This document shows, piece by piece, positions 24,583-56,037 of a DNA stretch of 56,406 bases. Under the pieces are notes generated by a model, which saw nothing but the letters and a program-made list of their open reading frames with translations, had not been told where the DNA came from and searched no databases. The position numbers and the translations under genes were made by a program. Source of the stretch: an uncultured Candidatus Saccharibacteria bacterium (lineage in GTDB: Bacteria; Patescibacteriota; Minisyncoccia; Phycocordibacterales; UBA9973); contig CAZYBS010000004.1 in assembly GCA_964645245.1 (NCBI GenBank), positions 1 to 56,406 on the forward strand. The letters run 5' to 3'. Every line of letters starts with the position of its first letter. Positions within the stretch are counted from its first letter, which is position 1.

Positions 24583-25824
24583 GTGTACACACAACATCCA
24601 TCAAGAGGACCAAAGAAGTTTGGCCGTTCTGCATCGTCTTTTAGAGCCAAACCCGGTTTCCGGGCTGGACGTTTTTCTCGTCCCAAGAATAAGAAAAGAT
24701 TCAGAGGCGAGCGGATAGATTTTTCGCGTTTCATAAAAAAAGGACAACACGTGGAAGAAAAACCGTATGTTTCAAAACATACCTTCGCAGATTTTCCTTT
24801 CAATCCGCAGCTGCACAAAAATATAGCTCGTGCCGGGTTTATCCACCCTCGGCCTATTCAAGACCAGGCGATACTGACAGTGCTCAAGGGCTCGGATGTT
24901 TTCGGTATGGCTAATACCGGTACCGGCAAGACTGCAGCTTTTCTCTTGCCTTTGATAGAAAAAATTTCCAAGACTAGAGGCAAAAACATGAGAGAAAAAG
25001 TGCTGATTATGGCGCCGACCCGCGAACTTGCGCTTCAAATAGAGGAGGACTTTAAAATTCTTGCTTTCGGCTTCGAAATGTTTTCGGTTGCTTGCGTGGG
25101 GGGACTTCCGATAATGAAACAAATCAGGGAAATAAAAATGGGAGTGTCTTTTGTGATTGGTACACCAGGGCGACTGCGTGACTTAATAGAGAAAAAAATT
25201 CTAGATTTATCAATTTGCCATAGCGTGGTCTTAGACGAGGCTGATAGAATGCTGGATATGGGTTTTCGGGACGATATGGTGTATATCATCGGCAAAACTG
25301 CGAAAGAGAAGCAGACGCTCTTCTTTTCCGCGACGCTTTCTCCGGAAATTAAAAAATTAACGCAGCTGTATCTAAAAGACCCCGTTTTTATTTCCGTAAT
25401 TTCCGGCGAGACATTAAAAAATATTGACCAAGACGTTATTCGTACCAGAAGCAAAGAAGAGAAATTGAAAAAATTGCACGAAGTTTTAAAAAAAGACGGC
25501 TCGGATAAAGTACTCATTTTCCGGGAGATGAAACACAGCGTGGATACTCTAGCAAAAGAGCTTACACACTTTGGATTTAAAGTAGGTGGAATTCATGGTA
25601 ATAAAAGAAGCCGTGAGCGTATCCGCATATTGGATTCGTTTAAAAAAGACAAAATTAATATTTTAATTGCCACCGACGTGGCCGCGCGCGGGCTTGATAT
25701 CCCGGATGTAACCCATGTCATCAACTACGACGTGCCGCAAACCTACAACACATACATCCACCGCATCGGCCGAACCGGCCGTTCCGGCAAAAAAGGTACC
25801 GCATTAACCTTTGTGCCGGCGTAA
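24583..25824 (+). CDS. DEAD-box ATP-dependent RNA helicase
   Basis: TGTGKTAAF, PTRELA, VLDEADRMLDMGF, SAT, HRIGRTGR motifs. GTG start; basic N-terminal tail. Confidence 0.9.
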   Translation: MYTQHPSRGPKKFGRSASSFRAKPGFRAGRFSRPKNKKRFRGERIDFSRFIKKGQHVEEKPYVSKHTFADFPFNPQLHKNIARAGFIHPRPIQDQAILTVLKGSDVFGMANTGTGKTAAFLLPLIEKISKTRGKNMREKVLIMAPTRELALQIEEDFKILAFGFEMFSVACVGGLPIMKQIREIKMGVSFVIGTPGRLRDLIEKKILDLSICHSVVLDEADRMLDMGFRDDMVYIIGKTAKEKQTLFFSATLSPEIKKLTQLYLKDPVFISVISGETLKNIDQDVIRTRSKEEKLKKLHEVLKKDGSDKVLIFREMKHSVDTLAKELTHFGFKVGGIHGNKRSRERIRILDSFKKDKINILIATDVAARGLDIPDVTHVINYDVPQTYNTYIHRIGRTGRSGKKGTALTFVPA

Positions 25825-25902
25825 AGTTGATTAGTATAGTCTAATTTTATTCCAAACTGCCAGTAACTTTGAGTTAGGTTTAGAGTCTGATAAACTTTAA
25901 AT

Positions 25903-26991
25903 ATGTCATCTTTAAAACAGGTAGACAAAATTAAATTAGAAAAACTTTTTGGAATGAACACAGGATATGTTTGTGATTTTTGGGATTCGACATTTGGTGA
26001 GTTTGTTAAGGAAAACACAGGAATTGATGTATATACTGAGGAGTATGCGCGAGGTGGTACCTCTAAGGCAAATAGATTGAGGACTTTCTGGAAAAAAGAA
26101 TCAGATGAGTTAACAGCAAAGTTAGTAGGAGCGTTATTAGAATATTGGAGAACACTTCAACTTGTTTCAGGTCAAGATATGCAACTTTCTGACCATCATT
26201 TATATCTTGAGGGTCTCAAAATAATTAAGAACCTTGAGTCTGGTGGCGCCACTAGTAACAATAAAATTACAACTGGAATAGTTGATGAACCAAATGCTAA
26301 GCAAGTGTTTAATGTTCAAGGCTCACAACTTCATTTTGGGAAGGGTGACAATATTGAACAAAACAAAAACATAAACCCAAAAACGAACTTCTTTCATAAA
26401 TACTGGCGGGAGTTTTTTCTCACTGTAATTGCTGGGGTTACTATTTTTATAATTACAGAAGGCAAAATTCCACAGATTTTTAATAAAAATAATGGTTTAA
26501 ATAGTGAAATTCAAAATACTCAAAATATTTTAAAAGGAAGTAACTTAATAAAAGACAATCTACGTTCCTTAGAACCACTCGAAACAGGTAAAAATATAAG
26601 TAAGCTTCCTGATAATACATATTTTTATGCGCTCTCCACTTCTATTGTCTATGAAATAGAAAATACAAAAGAAGACTTTCTGCAAGCAACAAATGACTAT
26701 TTCAATAATTATTCTTTTGAAATTCAAAAAATATCCAACCGTTATTATTTGGTTGGTTCTATATCTGATGAAGCCTACTCAAATATAGGCTCTGTAAGTA
26801 CAAATAATCCCTTATATACAATATTATTTCCAAAATCTTGGGGGGGAGCCACTCATTACATAGCGATACCTTTTGATAAAATTTATACTATTAAAAGTAG
26901 AACTATCAACTTAGATGAAAATACAAAAATGGATGTTTTTGACATTGGTTTTAAGGAAGTGAAAGATTATCCAGACACTCATATAAAATAA
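25903..26991 (+). CDS. orphan protein with central TM helix (362 aa)
   Basis: ORF track. Soluble N-terminal domain, TM at FFLTVIAGVTIFIITEG, Asn/Ile-rich C-terminal domain. Very AT-rich; no motif recognised. Confidence 0.5.
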   Translation: MSSLKQVDKIKLEKLFGMNTGYVCDFWDSTFGEFVKENTGIDVYTEEYARGGTSKANRLRTFWKKESDELTAKLVGALLEYWRTLQLVSGQDMQLSDHHLYLEGLKIIKNLESGGATSNNKITTGIVDEPNAKQVFNVQGSQLHFGKGDNIEQNKNINPKTNFFHKYWREFFLTVIAGVTIFIITEGKIPQIFNKNNGLNSEIQNTQNILKGSNLIKDNLRSLEPLETGKNISKLPDNTYFYALSTSIVYEIENTKEDFLQATNDYFNNYSFEIQKISNRYYLVGSISDEAYSNIGSVSTNNPLYTILFPKSWGGATHYIAIPFDKIYTIKSRTINLDENTKMDVFDIGFKEVKDYPDTHIK

Positions 26992-27025
26992 TTGGTTCTC
27001 ACGTCGTACCAGTTGGCCAGCAATT

Positions 27026-27115
27026 TTATTTTATTAACCCTGCCTTAAGGAGAGTGGCGTAAACGCCTCTTTTTTTCATGGTGCGCATGCCTTGGACGGA
27101 GACTTCTATATTGAT
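27026..27115 (-). pseudogene. duplicated 3' fragment of rpmB (last 29 codons)
   Basis: Minus strand reads INIEVSVQGMRTMKKRGVYATLLKAGLIK*, compared with the intact L28 C-terminus INIEVSVQGLRTMKKRGAYATLLKAGLIKA*. Confidence 0.7.
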
Positions 27116-27148
27116 TGACTTGAATACAATTTTTGATATACTTCAAAT

Positions 27149-27397
27149 ATGAAAAGTTATTCATTTCGCACGATAATTGAAAAAGACGGCAAACAATATC
27201 ACGGTTTTGTGCCGGCTCTTTTGGGTTGTCATACTTACGGCAAAACCATCGAGGAAACGAAAAAAAATCTAAATGAAGCGATTGAGAGCTATCTTATTTC
27301 CTGTATTAAACACGGAGATAGAATTCCAAGCGATAACGGACTTCAATCCATTGAAACTGTATCTATTCCGATTTTTTCCAAGAGGGCTTATGCCTAA
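27149..27397 (+). CDS. hicB: HicB-family antitoxin
   Basis: YSFRTIIEKDGKQYHGFVPALLGCHTYGKTIEETKKNLNEAIE typical HicB N-domain. Confidence 0.75.
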   Translation: MKSYSFRTIIEKDGKQYHGFVPALLGCHTYGKTIEETKKNLNEAIESYLISCIKHGDRIPSDNGLQSIETVSIPIFSKRAYA

Positions 27398-27629
27398 ATT
27401 GCCAAACATAAAAGGTAAACAACTTTTAAAAATTCTGCAAGGAATCGGTTATGATTTAGACCATATACAGGGTAGCCACCATGTGCTCCGACGTTCTGAT
27501 GGAAAGAAAACTACTATCCCAATCCACAGTAATAAAGAAATTCCTAAAGGTACGCTTTTGGGCATATTAACCGATTTAGATATTTCGAAAGAAGAGTTTA
27601 TTTCCTTATTAAAAAAGAAAAAACAATAA
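27390..27629 (+). CDS. hicA: HicA-family toxin
   Basis: KGKQLLKILQGIGYDLDHIQGSHHVL....KKTTIPIH. The ATG at 27390 overlaps the hicB stop. Confidence 0.8.
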   Translation: MPKLPNIKGKQLLKILQGIGYDLDHIQGSHHVLRRSDGKKTTIPIHSNKEIPKGTLLGILTDLDISKEEFISLLKKKKQ

Positions 27630-27631
27630 TT

Positions 27632-28519
27632 ATGCTAAAAGGAAGTTTAGTTAAAACAGTTACTTCTGACGGCTTAGAACTAGCTGGTTTTTGGGTAGAT
27701 GCTAAAAGTGATGTTGCCGTATTTCATTCTCATGGCACAGCTGGGGACTTTTACACCCATAAATTCATTGAAGTTGAGGGAGAGAAATTGGCACAAGAAG
27801 GCATCTCTTTTTTGACAGCCAATAATAGAGGGCACGATGTATATGCTGATATTAGAAAACATAAAAAAGGAAGGGTGGAGTGGACTCAAATTGGCGGGGG
27901 ATTTGAAAAATTTGAGGACTGTCTTTTGGATATTGAAGCTTGGATAAATTTTTTAATAAAAAATGGTGTAAAAAAAATTATTCTCCAAGGGCATAGTCTT
28001 TCTCAAAAAATTCTATATTACCAGTATGTTAAAAAAAATCCAAAAGTAATTGGTCAAATTCATCTATCACCGCAAAACGATGATGGTTTGATGTATTATT
28101 CTTTAGGTGAAAAGAAATATAGAGAAGTAAATAAAAAAATTAGGCAAATGATTAAAGAGGGTAAAGGAAATAAAATACTTCCCAAAAACCTTTCGCCAGT
28201 CAGTTATGTTACTTCAGCTCAGATGTACTCTGGTTATTTGACTGATTATGGAGCTGGGACTTTGACTCCTTATCACAATCCTCAATCCAAAAACTGGCAA
28301 GTGCTAGAAAAAACGAAAAGTCCCCTGTTGTTTATTTTTGGTAGTAAGGATATTTACATGAAACCGTCCCCAGAAATTGCCGCCAAACTTATAGAGGAAA
28401 AGACGAAATCAGCCAAATCAATTAGAGTCAAAATTATCAAAGGTGCCACCCATGGTTATATCGGTCATGAAAAAGAGTTAGTGAAAATTATTACTGATTG
28501 GGTTCTAAAATACAAATAG
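27632..28519 (+). CDS. alpha/beta-fold hydrolase
   Basis: HGTAGDFY oxyanion region, nucleophile-elbow-like LQGHSLSQ, C-terminal GATHGY. Confidence 0.6.
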   Translation: MLKGSLVKTVTSDGLELAGFWVDAKSDVAVFHSHGTAGDFYTHKFIEVEGEKLAQEGISFLTANNRGHDVYADIRKHKKGRVEWTQIGGGFEKFEDCLLDIEAWINFLIKNGVKKIILQGHSLSQKILYYQYVKKNPKVIGQIHLSPQNDDGLMYYSLGEKKYREVNKKIRQMIKEGKGNKILPKNLSPVSYVTSAQMYSGYLTDYGAGTLTPYHNPQSKNWQVLEKTKSPLLFIFGSKDIYMKPSPEIAAKLIEEKTKSAKSIRVKIIKGATHGYIGHEKELVKIITDWVLKYK

Positions 28520-28542
28520 ATAAATATCTCTGTATAAAATTA

Positions 28543-28791
28543 CTACGCTTTTATCAAACCAGCCTTGAGGAGCGTGGCATAGGCGCCGCGCTTTTTCATG
28601 GTGCGCAGGCCTTGGACGGAGACTTCTATATTGATGTATTTATTGATTTCAGGAATAAAAATTCTCTTCTTTTGAAGATTTAAGTATTTTCGGACTTTGC
28701 CGGTAGGGTTAAATTTAGTGGCACGAGTCCTGTTGGAATACCCGCCCCCGACAATTGAACCCTTTTTTGTTATCGCGCATATTTTCGCCAT
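28543..28791 (-). CDS. rpmB: 50S ribosomal protein L28
   Basis: MAKICAITKKGSIVGGGYSNRTRATKF..N(L)QKKRIF typical L28. Confidence 0.9.
   Translation of the reverse strand: MAKICAITKKGSIVGGGYSNRTRATKFNPTGKVRKYLNLQKKRIFIPEINKYINIEVSVQGLRTMKKRGAYATLLKAGLIKA
28551..28635. repeat. direct repeat copy 2 (inside rpmB 3' end), paired with 27031-27115
   Basis: About 85 bp aligned. The distal 45 bp are identical except for one base. Confidence 0.75.
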
Positions 28792-28823: not shown

Positions 28824-29444
28824 ATGCAAGCGACTGATGCAATTTTTTATATAGCCATACTGGTGATGTCAATCGTCATTCACGAAGTCTCGCACGGCTT
28901 TATGGCGGAATATTTCGGTGACCAGACGGCGCGGTATGCCGGCCGTCTTACTCTCAATCCCCTGAAGCATTTAGATTTATTTGGCTCGGTTCTTTTGCCA
29001 GCGTTTTTGGTTTTATCAAATGCTCCTTTTTTGTTTGGCTGGGCGAAACCGGTGCCGTATAATCCGGATAATTTAAGCAATAAGAAATGGGGAACTGTAG
29101 CCGTCGCTGCGGCTGGAGTACTCGCCAATTTCTCCATCGCAATTTTATTTGGAATTATCACTCGTCTTACCTCTGGCCTGGCAATGCCCGCGGGTTTTTA
29201 TTTTATAACTTCCGTAATTATTATAGTGAATCTCGCTTTAGGAATATTCAACTTAGTCCCAATTTCACCTCTTGATGGTTCCAAAATACTTCTATCTTTT
29301 TTGCCCGAATCTTTTTCGGGAATAGTGAGACTATCTGAGCAATATTCTCTCATCTTGCTCCTTATTTTTATTGTTTTCTTCGCTAATTACTTATCTCCAA
29401 TACTCTCTTATCTTTTTACCCTTATCACTGGGCTTGCGCTTTAA
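28824..29444 (+). CDS. site-2 protease family (peptidase M50) membrane metalloprotease
   Basis: HEVSHG (HExxH) and NLVPISPLDGSK motifs. Confidence 0.75.
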   Translation: MQATDAIFYIAILVMSIVIHEVSHGFMAEYFGDQTARYAGRLTLNPLKHLDLFGSVLLPAFLVLSNAPFLFGWAKPVPYNPDNLSNKKWGTVAVAAAGVLANFSIAILFGIITRLTSGLAMPAGFYFITSVIIIVNLALGIFNLVPISPLDGSKILLSFLPESFSGIVRLSEQYSLILLLIFIVFFANYLSPILSYLFTLITGLAL

Positions 29445-29497
29445 GATTATAAATAGTATATTATTTCCATAGTCCTATGGGGCTTTTTTGTTTGTTT

Positions 29498-29914
29498 ATG
29501 CCAACAATTAACCAGTTAATTAAAAAAAATAGGGTCAAAGTCCATGCCAAGCACAAGACTGTAGCCTTGGCCAAGGGCTTCAATGTCTTAAAAAATAGAC
29601 CGGTCTTTTTCCCGGCACCTTTTAAGCGTGGTGTTTGTACGAAAGTTTCCACCACGACTCCCAAGAAGCCAAACTCGGCATTGCGAAAGATTGCCAGAGT
29701 CCGCTTGACCAATGGTATGGAAGTTACGGCTTATATTCCGGGCGAAGGCCATAATTTACAAGAACACTCCGTGGTTATGCTGCGCGGAGGACGCGTGAAA
29801 GACTTGATTGGAGTCAGATATCATATTGTGCGCGGAGTTTTGGATACGCAAGGAGTTGAAAAACGCAAACAAGGCAGGTCTTTATATGGCAACAAGAAGC
29901 CGAAGAGTAAGTAA
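29498..29914 (+). CDS. rpsL: 30S ribosomal protein S12
   Basis: [10 protein letters not shown] start, [10 protein letters not shown] motif. ATG at 29498 within ORF 29477..29914. Confidence 0.95.
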
Positions 29915-29986: not shown

Positions 29987-30457
29987 ATGAGACGCAAAGT
30001 TAAAAATAGAAATATAATTTCCCCTGATTTCGTCTACAATTCCCAGAAATTAGAGAAATTTATCAATTACATCATGTGGTCTGGGAAAAAAGAAACTGCC
30101 AGAAAAGTAATGTATCAGGCTTTTGATGTGATCAAAGAAAAAACAGGCAACCCGAATCCATTGGAAATTTTTGATTTGGCGCTTAGAAATGCTGGTCCCT
30201 CAACCGAAGTGCGTTCCAAGCGCATCGGGGGCGCGAACTATCAGGTACCGATAGAAGTGCGAGCTGAACGCCGTCTGGCTTTAGCTATGCGCTGGATTCG
30301 CGACGCGGCTCGCAGTGGCAAAGGGCGTCCGATGCATTTGAAACTGGCCGATGAGTTGATTTCCGCTTCCAGGAACGAAGGTTCGGCGATTAAAAAGAAA
30401 GAAGACACGCACAAGATGGCCGAGGCCAATAAAGCTTTTGCCCATTTTGCATGGTGA
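29987..30457 (+). CDS. rpsG: 30S ribosomal protein S7
   Basis: Typical S7 length and motifs (GKKETARKV, VRSKRIGGANYQVP, ..HFAW end). Confidence 0.95.
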   Translation: MRRKVKNRNIISPDFVYNSQKLEKFINYIMWSGKKETARKVMYQAFDVIKEKTGNPNPLEIFDLALRNAGPSTEVRSKRIGGANYQVPIEVRAERRLALAMRWIRDAARSGKGRPMHLKLADELISASRNEGSAIKKKEDTHKMAEANKAFAHFAW

Positions 30458-30506
30458 TAGAAAATAAGGAGCAAGGCGACTATATTTTCATCATCCTGCT
30501 CAAATT
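30457..30506. repeat. direct repeat copy 1 flanking island D (starts at the rpsG stop)
   Basis: ATAGAAAATAAGGAGC..GGCGACTATATTTTCAT.. recurs at 31483-31533 (roughly 40 of 50 positions). Confidence 0.7.
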
Positions 30507-30561
30507 TTGCCGCTGCTTACTCTAAATGTTTTAAATAAACACTTAACTCAATATTGAAAAT

Positions 30562-30616
30562 AAAATCTGCGGGGCCGAATAGGCCGTCCCTCATGGGCGA
30601 AGCGGATTTTTCTGTT
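30562..30616 (+). terminator. branched stem-loop plus T-tract downstream of rpsG
   Basis: Outer stem AAAATCTGC/GCGGATTTT encloses hairpins GGCC-GAATA-GGCC and CCC-TCAT-GGG, followed by TTTTTCTGTTT. Confidence 0.45.
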
Positions 30617-30642
30617 TATATCCCGTAAAATTTAGGCTAGAT

Positions 30643-30709
30643 AATAAGAAAGTCCCGGCAACCACGAAGGCCGCCGGGACTGAGATGCGCGAGTGCTAGG
30701 CCACTCGCG
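30643..30709 (-). terminator. tandem hairpin terminator of island D gene
   Basis: CGCGAGTG/CACTCGCG (30688-30709) and AGTCCCGGC/GCCGGGACT (30651-30681), followed on the minus strand by TTCTTATT. Confidence 0.55.
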
Positions 30710-30750
30710 AGTTGATGATTTTTTCCGTTTACCTAGAACGTCTTTTGCCG

Positions 30751-31287
30751 TTATTGTTTAACGGCTATTTCAAGCAACCTGAGATCGTTCGGCACGTCGA
30801 AGATATTGAACGCACTGGCGATGTTCTGAGCCCGTCGTACCGCTCTGTACGCCTTTCGGTCACCACGACGTGCGTTTCGCATAGCAGAGCGCTTGTCTCT
30901 CAGACCAAAGAGGGAGTTTACCTCCCAGCGCTCCACTTCCTCAACGCGTCCTCTACATGCGTTAAGCGAGCCAACACGCCGCTTGAGTTCTCGCTTGATT
31001 TCCTTCTCAAGCATCGGACGCTCACTCCAATCGGGAGGTATGTGATACGGTGGGTGCACTCTGTAGATGATACAGAAGATAATGCACCACCATGTCCACA
31101 CCAGACCCACGCCGATTCCGAGGATCGTTCCGCCCGCACTTGCCGTGAAGACGAGTGCCACCACGATGGTGATTAACCCGCCTTGAGTGGCTTGGACAGG
31201 CGCGTGGGCTTGCATATACATCAGTGTATAAACGAGCACCACGACTGAAGGGGCGCCAACCAACAGGTAGCCTAATGCTCTTCTCAC
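30751..31287 (-). CDS. hypothetical membrane protein, island D (178 aa)
   Basis: GTG start 5 nt after AAGGAGG. Two to three N-terminal TM helices, then an Arg/Glu-rich cytoplasmic tail. GC-rich. Confidence 0.5.
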   Translation of the reverse strand: MRRALGYLLVGAPSVVVLVYTLMYMQAHAPVQATQGGLITIVVALVFTASAGGTILGIGVGLVWTWWCIIFCIIYRVHPPYHIPPDWSERPMLEKEIKRELKRRVGSLNACRGRVEEVERWEVNSLFGLRDKRSAMRNARRGDRKAYRAVRRAQNIASAFNIFDVPNDLRLLEIAVKQ

Positions 31288-31379
31288 GATTTCCTCCTTC
31301 TGCGACCCTGTCTAAACTAGCTCCTTGCCAGTCAGACCTAAGCCTCTTTGGCTCAGTGAATCGCTCGAGACACTCGATC

Positions 31380-31408
31380 ATCATAGCACTTATTCCTATA
31401 AAAGTCAA
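31380..31408 (-). promoter_or_regulatory. sigma70-like promoter driving island D
   Basis: Minus strand reads TTGACT-17 nt-TATGAT. The GC-rich sequence begins immediately after the -10 box. Confidence 0.6.
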
Positions 31409-31425
31409 GGGCTAAAATAAAACTA

Positions 31426-31480
31426 TTGCAAAAAATAGCTTTATGCTATATAGTATTCCTAGCGCAACAGGCGCTTTTTA
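31426..31480 (+). promoter_or_regulatory. TTGCAA-17-TATAGT promoter followed at the predicted start by hairpin+T-run
   Basis: Promoter 31426-31454. AGCGC-AACAG-GCGCT hairpin 31461-31475, then TTTTT. Confidence 0.45.
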
Positions 31481-31482
31481 TT

Positions 31483-31533
31483 ATAGAAAATAAGGAGCTT
31501 TGGCGACTATATTTTCATAACCCTGTTAAATTA
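31483..31533. repeat. direct repeat copy 2 flanking island D
   Basis: See 30457-30506. Lies just upstream of the GIY-YIG gene. Confidence 0.7.
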
Positions 31534-31542
31534 TTTTAAATT

Positions 31543-31806
31543 ATGGGAAAGTACTACTATGTATATGTCTTACTGTCTGATAAAGATGGAAACTTCTATA
31601 CAGGTTTTACAGAAGATTTAAAATCAAGATTTGAGCGACACAGTAACAAGTTCGTAAAATCTACAAGAGATAGAGGTAAGCTTACCCTTGTATATTCTGA
31701 AGCTTGTTTAAGTAAAAAGGACGCCCTACACCGTGAGAAGTATTTGAAAACCTATCACGGCAAGCAATTTTTACGAAATAGGCTCAAATCTTATTTAACA
31801 GGGTAG
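31543..31806 (+). CDS. GIY-YIG nuclease family protein
   Basis: YYVYVLLSDKDGNFYTGFTEDLKSRFERH motif; 87 aa. Confidence 0.85.
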   Translation: MGKYYYVYVLLSDKDGNFYTGFTEDLKSRFERHSNKFVKSTRDRGKLTLVYSEACLSKKDALHREKYLKTYHGKQFLRNRLKSYLTG

Positions 31807-31841
31807 TGATTTTCTAATCGCTATGCTCAAGAAAATCAACT

Positions 31842-55460: not shown

Positions 55461-55545
55461 GGTGGAAGCCGAAATTATGGCGCGGTATAACACGATGGAA
55501 TAAATTTAAACATTTCAGTATTTAAATATTTAAACAAAAGATTAA

Positions 55546-56004
55546 ATGGCTACAATTTCAAAATTTGAAGACTTGATTTGTTTTAATAAGGCTAGGGAGC
55601 TAACCAAGTCCATTTACGAAGAATTTAAAGACTGCAAAGATTACGGTTTTAAAGATCAGATTACTCGGGCGAGCGTTTCTATATTGAGTAATATTGCGGA
55701 AGGTTTTGAAAGGGGCACGAAAAATGAATTTTTAAATTTTCTTTATATTGCCAAAGGTTCTGCAGGCGAAGTGCGAGCGCAGCTTTATGTGGCGCTAGAT
55801 GCTGGCTATTTAAATCTTGAAACATTTAAATATTTAAATAATCTTGCATTGGAATGTTCGCGTCTAATTCAGAGTTTTTCGGAGAAAGTTAAAAAAGGCG
55901 CCAGCGCCGGCACGCAATTTAAGAAACTTGAAAAAGATGATCCGATGAAGGAGATTTTACGTCACCACGCCCCCGATGTTTATAAGCGTTTTTATGGTAA
56001 TTAA
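55546..56004 (+). CDS. four-helix-bundle protein (23S rRNA intervening-sequence protein / Avd-like family)
   Basis: FKDQITRASVSILSNIAEGFERGTKNEFLNFLYIAKGSAGEVRAQL signature. Confidence 0.8.
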   Translation: MATISKFEDLICFNKARELTKSIYEEFKDCKDYGFKDQITRASVSILSNIAEGFERGTKNEFLNFLYIAKGSAGEVRAQLYVALDAGYLNLETFKYLNNLALECSRLIQSFSEKVKKGASAGTQFKKLEKDDPMKEILRHHAPDVYKRFYGN

Positions 56005-56037
56005 ATCCTTAAATATTTCTATTTTTAAATAAATTAT

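Follow-up and report, generated by a model that had tools for sequence, protein, structure and literature searches.

A spare rpmB 3' end at the join of two accessory-gene fillings in a Patescibacteria genome

The duplicated rpmB tail and the slot that contains it

Streptococcal integrative and conjugative elements (ICE) and integrative mobilizable elements (IME) insert in rpsI, rplL, and rpmG. Other integrase-mediated elements that rebuild the 3' ends of tRNA or protein genes are the tRNA-targeting islands and the tycheposons (bioRxiv 10.1101/2020.12.28.424599). Variable genes between conserved flanks are also known from hotspots of horizontal gene transfer free of mobile genetic elements (MGE-free hotspots; Oliveira et al. 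2017, PMC5635113) and from the 'minimal mobile elements' of Neisseria (Saunders and Snyder 2002, as cited in PMC3787668), for which the exchange is ascribed to homologous recombination of probably transformed DNA through the flanks. The locus analyzed here, a duplicated 3' end of rpmB, the gene of ribosomal protein L28, lies in a 56,406-nt stretch of DNA (assembly GCA_964645245.1, contig CAZYBS010000004.1; hereafter, the window) from an uncultured Candidatus Saccharibacteria bacterium. We consider it probable that this duplication is the scar of two alternative fillings of one variable slot, joined in tandem either by recombination that was homologous at one end and illegitimate at the other or by a Campbell-like crossover. 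A process of the former kind, homology-facilitated illegitimate recombination (HFIR), became known initially from Acinetobacter, Streptococcus pneumoniae, and Pseudomonas stutzeri. The DNA taken up in HFIR is joined by homology at one end and illegitimately at the other (PMC3240628).

The repeat search found one strong direct repeat in this region, at 27029-27115 and 28549-28635, with a length of 87 nt, 86% identity, and 1520 nt from start to start. The 1433 nt between the copies hold a hicB gene, a hicA gene, and a hydrolase gene. The half of the repeat that faces the body of rpmB (27072-27115 versus 28592-28635, 44 nt) contains a single mismatch, and the other 11 of the 12 differences over 87 positions fall in the remaining 43 nt. 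With up to three mismatches allowed, this 44-mer occurs twice in the whole window, against 0.00 occurrences expected from 100 shuffles. The minus-strand translation of 27026-27127 reads VFKSINIEVSVQGMRTMKKRGVYATLLKAGLIK, and the protein of the intact rpmB gene ends with INIEVSVQGLRTMKKRGAYATLLKAGLIKA. A first-pass annotation of this DNA had described an 85-bp repeat (27031-27115 and 28551-28635) with a near-identical distal 45 bp, an upstream copy that translates on the minus strand as the last 29 residues of L28, and a HicB/HicA pair with an alpha/beta hydrolase in the ~1.4 kb between the copies. This description is right in every checkable detail: the repeat is actually two bases longer, its near-identical part is 44 nt with one mismatch, both translated ends agree, and the three genes are recognized by Pfam. 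The features of the locus, including its conserved flanks, are as follows.

24583..25824, plus strand: DEAD-box RNA helicase gene (Pfam DEAD 2.9e-45, Helicase_C 1.8e-34), the conserved left flank of the slot, convergent with rpmB
25903..26991, plus strand: accessory open reading frame (ORF) of 362 amino acids (aa), ORF362, the first slot filling, distantly related to Abi_C proteins
27029..27115, minus strand: spare rpmB 3' end (A'), the last 28-29 L28 codons in frame with the stop codon, lacking a start codon and the 5' part
27115..27142, plus strand: predicted promoter-like element for hicBA, TTGACT-16 nt-TATACT (with TG), 10 of 12 matches, the top plus-strand site in the region
27149..27397, plus strand: hicB antitoxin gene (82 aa; HicB/UPF0150 N-terminal domain only; PF21748 6e-10, PF15919 5e-8)
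27390..27629, plus strand: hicA toxin gene (79 aa; PF07927 4.4e-16), overlapping hicB by 8 nt
27632..28519, plus strand: DUF1749-family alpha/beta hydrolase gene (295 aa; PF08538 2.2e-12, PF12146 (Hydrolase_4) 1.5e-7), starting 2 nt past the hicA stop codon
28543..28791, minus strand: intact rpmB (ribosomal protein L28, 82 aa; Pfam Ribosomal_L28 E = 2.5e-8)
28549-28635, minus strand: repeat copy A, within intact rpmB, comprising its last 81 coding bases and 6 nt
28824..29444, plus strand: M50-family peptidase gene (Pfam), the immediate upstream neighbor of rpmB in almost every related locus, conserved right flank
29477-29914: rpsL, after the M50 gene, conserved right flank
29987-30457: rpsG, after rpsL, conserved right flank

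The DNA comes from a metagenome-assembled genome, and relatives differ in the content of the slot, as would suit an assembly artefact in which two strain variants were strung together via their shared rpmB sequence. However, an artefact of the assembly graph would duplicate identical k-mers, and 12 of the 87 positions differ between the copies; moreover, the same arrangement is present in contigs produced by different assemblies and assemblers (ENA ERZ27284378, Logan SRR8863434, NCBI GCA_007376215.1). An analogous structure in one of the relatives (locus L009, see below) is likewise found in contigs from at least six samples, and an artefact is thus extremely improbable. Exact-protein look-ups matched the same strain alone, and the contig-level searches for this species returned the filled form alone.

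The locus was compared with 80 further loci, collected by homologue searches and a one-genome-per-species scan and labelled Nomurabacteria, Paceibacterota, or Patescibacteria. The order M50-rpmB followed by a convergent DEAD helicase gene is common to all 80. In 72 related loci with a convergent DEAD helicase, the rpmB stop codon and the helicase end are 0-206 nt apart in 33 cases and 258-4415 nt apart in 39, and a relative with a 95%-identical L28 shows the empty state, with 101 nt. The gap between the convergent rpmB and DEAD genes is a variable slot, in which, as in the MGE-free hotspots, the same conserved flanks enclose differing and unrelated contents (0-4415 nt).

The hicBA and hydrolase genes of the window occupy the same slot separately in other species. 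The hydrolase gene stands alone between the helicase gene and rpmB, with neither repeat nor hicBA, in L007/L021 and L103 (spacers of 20 nt and 5 nt), and its L007 product is 82% identical to that of the window. In L028, the slot contains hicA and hicB alone (86% and 87% identical to the window copies, respectively), lacking the hydrolase gene and flanked by a duplicated tail of the DEAD helicase gene. Thus the hicBA-hydrolase 'cassette' of the window is not a unit. The first-pass annotation had named the occurrence of the cassette elsewhere in the absence of repeats as grounds against its reading, and the hydrolase gene beside an unrepeated rpmB, together with the separate hicAB of L028, is such an occurrence. 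In L009-L014, whose L28 is 98% identical, the slot carries a 146-aa ORF and an IS200-like transposase gene.

The hydrolase is also found at 81% identity, in an unrelated context, in contigs named Roizmanbacteria. Since the Roizmanbacteria copy is about as close as the sister Nomurabacteria copy (82%), the sequences suggest transfer of this gene across lineages of the candidate phyla radiation (CPR), possibly across domains. A hydrolase of 61% identity is encoded in a Micrarchaeales archaeon; these copies comprise proteins P0008, P0020, and P0115 and loci L015-L020. In the Roizmanbacteria-labelled loci L015 and L016, identical hydrolase genes have differing left-hand neighbors, and no flanking gene-end duplication was found beside them.

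The predicted promoter-like element of hicBA begins with the last base of the repeat (27115), and the hicB ATG codon lies 6 nt past its second hexamer. A homologous element precedes hicB in L028, where it begins 7 nt past the DEAD stop codon, and the hicBA-hydrolase filling of the window therefore spans essentially the whole slot, from just past the would-be helicase stop codon to 87 nt inside rpmB. An apparent homology of the window sequence after the DEAD stop codon to the hicB upstream region was not relied on, both being promoter-like and AT-rich. The position of A' is the exact join between this filling and the other one, ORF362.

Like type II HicAB modules, the pair combines HicA and HicB domains in adjacent genes that overlap, here by 8 nt, behind a single promoter-like element; toxin-antitoxin (TA) activity is predicted from the domains. 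In contrast to these modules, the HicB of the window consists of the N-terminal domain only (82 aa), the gene order is hicB-hicA, and the hydrolase gene follows at 2 nt, a spacing at which it may be co-transcribed with hicA. No PADLOC match was obtained for HicB, HicA, or the hydrolase, and no structured RNA family of Rfam was found in or near the locus. ORF362, which has no match in Pfam or PADLOC, has a best homologue with 62% identity over 53% of its length, and many of its distant matches carry PF14355 (Abi_C, abortive infection C-terminus). It is present in the slot of none of the 80 relatives, and no homologue is near enough to reveal an 'ORF362-rpmB' allele. The GC content of ORF362 is 29-35%, against 40-45% in the flanks, and the low-GC tract as a whole (29-38%, ~25,900-28,500) takes in ORF362, which lies outside the repeats.

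The 41 occupied slots, the window included, contain 57 annotated ORFs. Paired genes among them are HicAB, BrnT/BrnA, a pair resembling RelE/ParD, and a Gp49/HTH pair. Other ORFs encode Fic, AAA_14-DUF4143, DUF3800, patatin, GNAT, and APH proteins, a zinc metallopeptidase, a metallophosphoesterase, a DUF285 protein of 1218 aa, and a Cas2-like PaaX_M protein that recurs between loci, and many have no match. The PaaX_M protein (120-190 aa) is the commonest occupant, found in five species (L043, L044, L050, L053, and L055), and could be a semi-conserved resident instead of cargo. Tyrosine or serine recombinases are encoded by none of the 57 cargo ORFs, and in the window the absence of a recombinase, reported by the first-pass annotation, holds both for the cassette and for the called genes within ~8 kb on either side (precomputed Pfam). 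The sole mobility genes in the slots encode two IS200-like Y1 transposases (L009 and L081), each belonging to a separate insertion sequence, and no mobility genes are tied to the variable region itself. The other side of rpmB is variable as well within one species-level group: in L106-L108 (identical L28, P0129) the M50 gene upstream of rpmB is replaced by small ORFs, whereas L105 retains it.

Recurrent gene-tail scars and the divergence of the two tails

The rpmB tail of each of the 82 loci was searched by BLAST against its own locus, and the procedure was repeated with the helicase tail. A same-strand downstream copy of the rpmB tail is present in 11 loci (L009, L024, L050, L052, L059, L064, L067, L069, L078, L099, and the window), with lengths of 37-90 nt, E-values from 1e-7 to 1e-35, and distances of 173-3220 nt from the stop codon. 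The repeats start at different codons, 37-92 nt before the rpmB stop, and every one of them includes the last ~30 nt of the coding sequence. The cargo is unrelated between the scarred loci; for instance, in L064 the two tails are separated by 173 nt that contain no ORF. Only 0-45 nt separate the spare tail from the helicase stop codon in L009, L050, L059, and L064, which is the ancestral empty junction, and in the remaining scarred loci, including the window, a further ORF separates the spare tail from the helicase gene.

A duplicated helicase 3' end (DEAD') was found in L009, L028, and L053. In L028, a 54-nt DEAD' fragment that includes the stop codon is separated by 2 nt from the end of rpmB, and thus preserves the empty junction, with hicAB between DEAD' and the intact helicase gene. 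In L053, a DEAD' fragment separates two cargo blocks. Scars of both genes are combined in L009, where the order is rpmB-A, orf146, DEAD', IS200, A', DEAD. The most recent-looking scars are those of L099 (98%), L052 (92%), L028 (93%), and L053 (96%). Overall, scars recur in about a quarter of the occupied slots.

The cargo-side 30 nt of the eleven rpmB junctions have neither a common motif nor a consistent microhomology, and the junctions show 0-3 nt of shared sequence. At 27115/27116 of the window, the rpmB-derived sequence meets the promoter region of hicB, the two sharing a few bases at most, and the other ten junctions are similar in this respect; such a novel joint of low homology at one end is what HFIR leaves.

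Two kinds of short inverted repeat were noted near the junctions. The 23-nt palindrome TGTCAAACACCCGATGTTTGACA occurs three times in L009 (8879-8901, 9369-9391, and 9592-9614), at and inside the IS200-like Y1 transposase unit, and the copies probably represent hairpin ends of the insertion sequence. The third of them directly adjoins the displaced rpmB tail, and the insertion sequence lies exactly at the neutral DEAD'/rpmB' junction. In L037, L055, L072, L074, L076, L077, and L081, a perfect inverted repeat of 17-19 nt starts in the last rpmB codons and has its partner 15-18 nt downstream, and an imperfect one (22 nt, 91%) is found at the same place in L098. It is probably a terminator hairpin that extends over the stop codon and serves both convergent genes.

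The simplest origin of a direct repeat would be that replication slippage or unequal sister exchange duplicated the rpmB end locally in tandem, with the cargo inserted later and the spare copy left to decay; the very similar copies in L099, L052, and L064 would fit a local origin there. The differences between the two tails of the window, however, are 9 synonymous versus 3 nonsynonymous (pS 0.41, pN 0.046), whereas decay predicts mostly nonsynonymous ones. Pooled over the eleven loci, they are 47.2 versus 27.8 (pN/pS 0.20; P = 1e-11 against neutral divergence). Under a model of duplication in situ, with a constrained intact copy and a drifting fragment, the synonymous excess has P = 0.006-0.015 for the window and 1e-4 to 3e-6 (about 1e-5) for the pooled set. 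The excess indicates that the tails diverged in different lineages, each as functional coding sequence, before they were joined. Local duplication would further require a separate mechanism to insert 1.4 kb, and would leave the likeness of the hydrolase-side tail to other hydrolase-bearing genomes (below) unexplained. We therefore regard it as very unlikely, and the unrelated tandem duplication to which the first-pass annotation would have fallen back is disfavored by the same synonymous excess. Judged by this substitution pattern, the two tails are orthologous tails of different lineages, not products of a local duplication.

The intact rpmB gene itself has a suggestive mosaic structure, with an L009-like head and an L021-like tail. 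Over the first 168 nt, it shares 95.2% identity with L009 and 91.7% with L021, whereas its 87-nt tail is closest of all loci to that of L021, which bears the hydrolase gene (74/87), and is poorly matched by L009 (63/87). The same tail signature is present in L103. The P0124/L102 locus was considered as an uninterrupted allele of A', because its intact L28 ends in LIK* as A' does, and was set aside, as at the DNA level other relatives are just as close to A'; its contig comprises 691 nt.

Proposed recombination between slot fillings and alternative origins

We suggest that the convergent stop codons of rpmB and the DEAD gene ancestrally almost abutted, and that the gap between them would have become a gene-exchange hotspot with small accessory genes that differ between species. 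The recombining partners would be alternative versions of the slot from different Nomurabacteria lineages. DNA of a relative would enter the cell, probably by natural transformation; in Patescibacteria, genes for homologous recombination and competence are common (PMC12455944). One end of the incoming DNA would recombine with a conserved flank, either rpmB and the str-operon genes on one side or the helicase gene on the other, and the other end would be joined illegitimately, as in HFIR. Alternatively, a circularized fragment could be integrated by a single homologous crossover (Campbell-like), with the same outcome.

A breakpoint inside a gene tail would be tolerated only if the incoming DNA brings a working tail, the other tail remaining as a scar. 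Breakpoints would often fall inside gene tails because the convergent stop codons nearly abut and leave almost no neutral space, and since such a breakpoint would survive only with a replacement tail, what remains as a scar is a gene tail. Either route predicts a duplicated tail of the gene that contains the breakpoint, an original junction intact on one side, the absence of an element-encoded enzyme, and scar-free alleles where both crossovers are homologous; all four outcomes are seen among the loci. In the window, hicBA-hydrolase may have arrived with a new rpmB tail that displaced the resident one, or ORF362 may have arrived from the helicase side, bringing the rpmB tail of its donor. The structure is symmetrical and agrees equally with either order of arrival of the two fillings.

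The locus resembles HFIR in having one homologous anchor and little or no homology at the other end, with foreign DNA gained beside a conserved gene. It differs in that HFIR is known mainly from laboratory selection experiments, whereas here natural scars are the evidence, and a Campbell-like crossover fits equally well. The likeness to the MGE-free hotspots and the minimal mobile elements extends to cargo shared with distant relatives and to the lack of integrases. Unlike in the MGE-free hotspots, however, about a quarter of the occupied slots keep a duplicated tail of a flanking gene, which implies that one end was not a clean homologous crossover; moreover, the flanks are convergent with almost no spacer, and the organisms are uncultivated CPR bacteria.

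The first-pass annotation had attributed the repeat to an acquired element that integrated into the 3' end of rpmB and rebuilt it, as tRNA-targeting islands do. Two parts of this proposal are supported, the horizontal acquisition of the DNA and the second, orthologous rpmB tail; a discrete, site-specifically integrated element is not. In a site-specific origin, the repeats would be the attL and attR of a small element whose att site contains a copy of the rpmB 3' end, the tyrosine or serine recombinase being lost or, as for cis-mobilizable or cassette-like elements, acting in trans. The direct repeats of the gene end, the rebuilt intact gene, the low-GC cargo, and the use of the same gene in 11 loci all agree with this origin, as they do with integrase islands and ICE/IME, which share the accessory or TA cargo and the repeated use of one site; and the inclusion of the last ~30 nt of coding sequence in all repeats is compatible with a fixed crossover site.

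Against these points, repeats of the 3' end and an intact target were found, and neither a recombinase nor a single target with conserved ends was seen. No recombinase is encoded in the 41 occupied slots, including those with the most recent-looking scars (L099, L052, L028, and L053), or within 8 kb of the site in the window. The cargo is tiny, sometimes one TA pair or an ORF-less 173 nt, and no conserved arm is present at its cargo-side ends. The neighbor's tail is duplicated in three loci, for which a second specificity would be needed, and the same genes occupy the slot as scar-free alleles in other species. The analogy with tRNA-targeting islands is thus not supported, given the unrelated cargo of the scarred loci (11 of 82), the variable start points, the missing shared motif, and the 57 ORFs devoid of recombinases, and we judge a site-specific origin unlikely.

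A more specific proposal, which we hold to be quite unlikely, is that a dedicated recombinase acting in trans captures small cassettes, each with a promoter, at the very ends of the rpmB and helicase coding sequences, by an integron- or Xer-like logic. If true, it would constitute a CPR cassette-acquisition system with the tail of an essential gene as the attachment site. A Xer/dif-like site was considered in this connection: the repeat core contains GGTGCGCAT, which resembles one arm of the Escherichia coli dif site. It has no inverted partner, encodes Met-Arg-Thr, and coincides with no switch in GC skew, and this candidate was dropped.

Several observations weigh against recombination between slot fillings. 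The mosaic signal comprises 87 nt only, with no close donor or recipient, no allele of either kind being near enough to fix the crossover points, and A' has no clear nearest relative. The exact A'-type (displaced) tail has no match in the JGI metagenome contigs, among which the conserved core of the tail is found in the known L009-type contig alone, and ORF362 has no close homologue. A trans-acting site-specific system would also predict repeats that reach the stop codon from variable starts. The support from genes for competence and homologous recombination comes by analogy from the general Patescibacteria literature. Finally, a local and very recent event would explain the scars of L052 and of L099 (98% identity across 90 nt or more, with the terminator included) equally well.

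Other features of the window and significance for CPR bacteria

Further toward the str operon, ~1.4 kb (30458-31841) separate rpsG from fusA, which are adjacent in L007 and L009. This segment contains a GC-rich block (51-55% versus ~40%) enclosed by direct repeats of 34 nt with 82% identity (30475-30508 and 31502-31535). Next to it stands a free-standing ORF for a GIY-YIG endonuclease (31543-31806; Pfam 4.9e-13). None of the ORFs in the GC-rich block has a Pfam match, and no Rfam match was found in it. The block may be a second, unrelated insertion, in the str operon. Near the end of the window, four AT-rich direct repeats of 34 nt (ATTTAAA-rich, 71-100% identical) are located at 55504-56032.

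For annotation, the rpmB locus indicates that a duplicated gene 3' end alone is insufficient evidence for an integrase-driven island. The processes considered here are already known, and the locus is a new example of them, with an unusually legible scar, in a group where such evidence is scarce. The CPR bacteria (Patescibacteria) have tiny genomes and few recognizable mobile elements and are not open to laboratory manipulation, and their gain of accessory genes is inferred mostly from gene content. The scars of the rpmB slot are sequence-level pointers to the mechanism of this gain. As each duplicated gene tail marks a single event, genome-wide counts of such tails could provide an estimate of the frequency of one-sided recombination in nature. 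In these bacteria, small cargo of the defense or TA type is apparently exchanged, and also lined up in tandem, in the space between two conserved genes. The process would be general recombination that is illegitimate at one end and proceeds in the absence of integrases.

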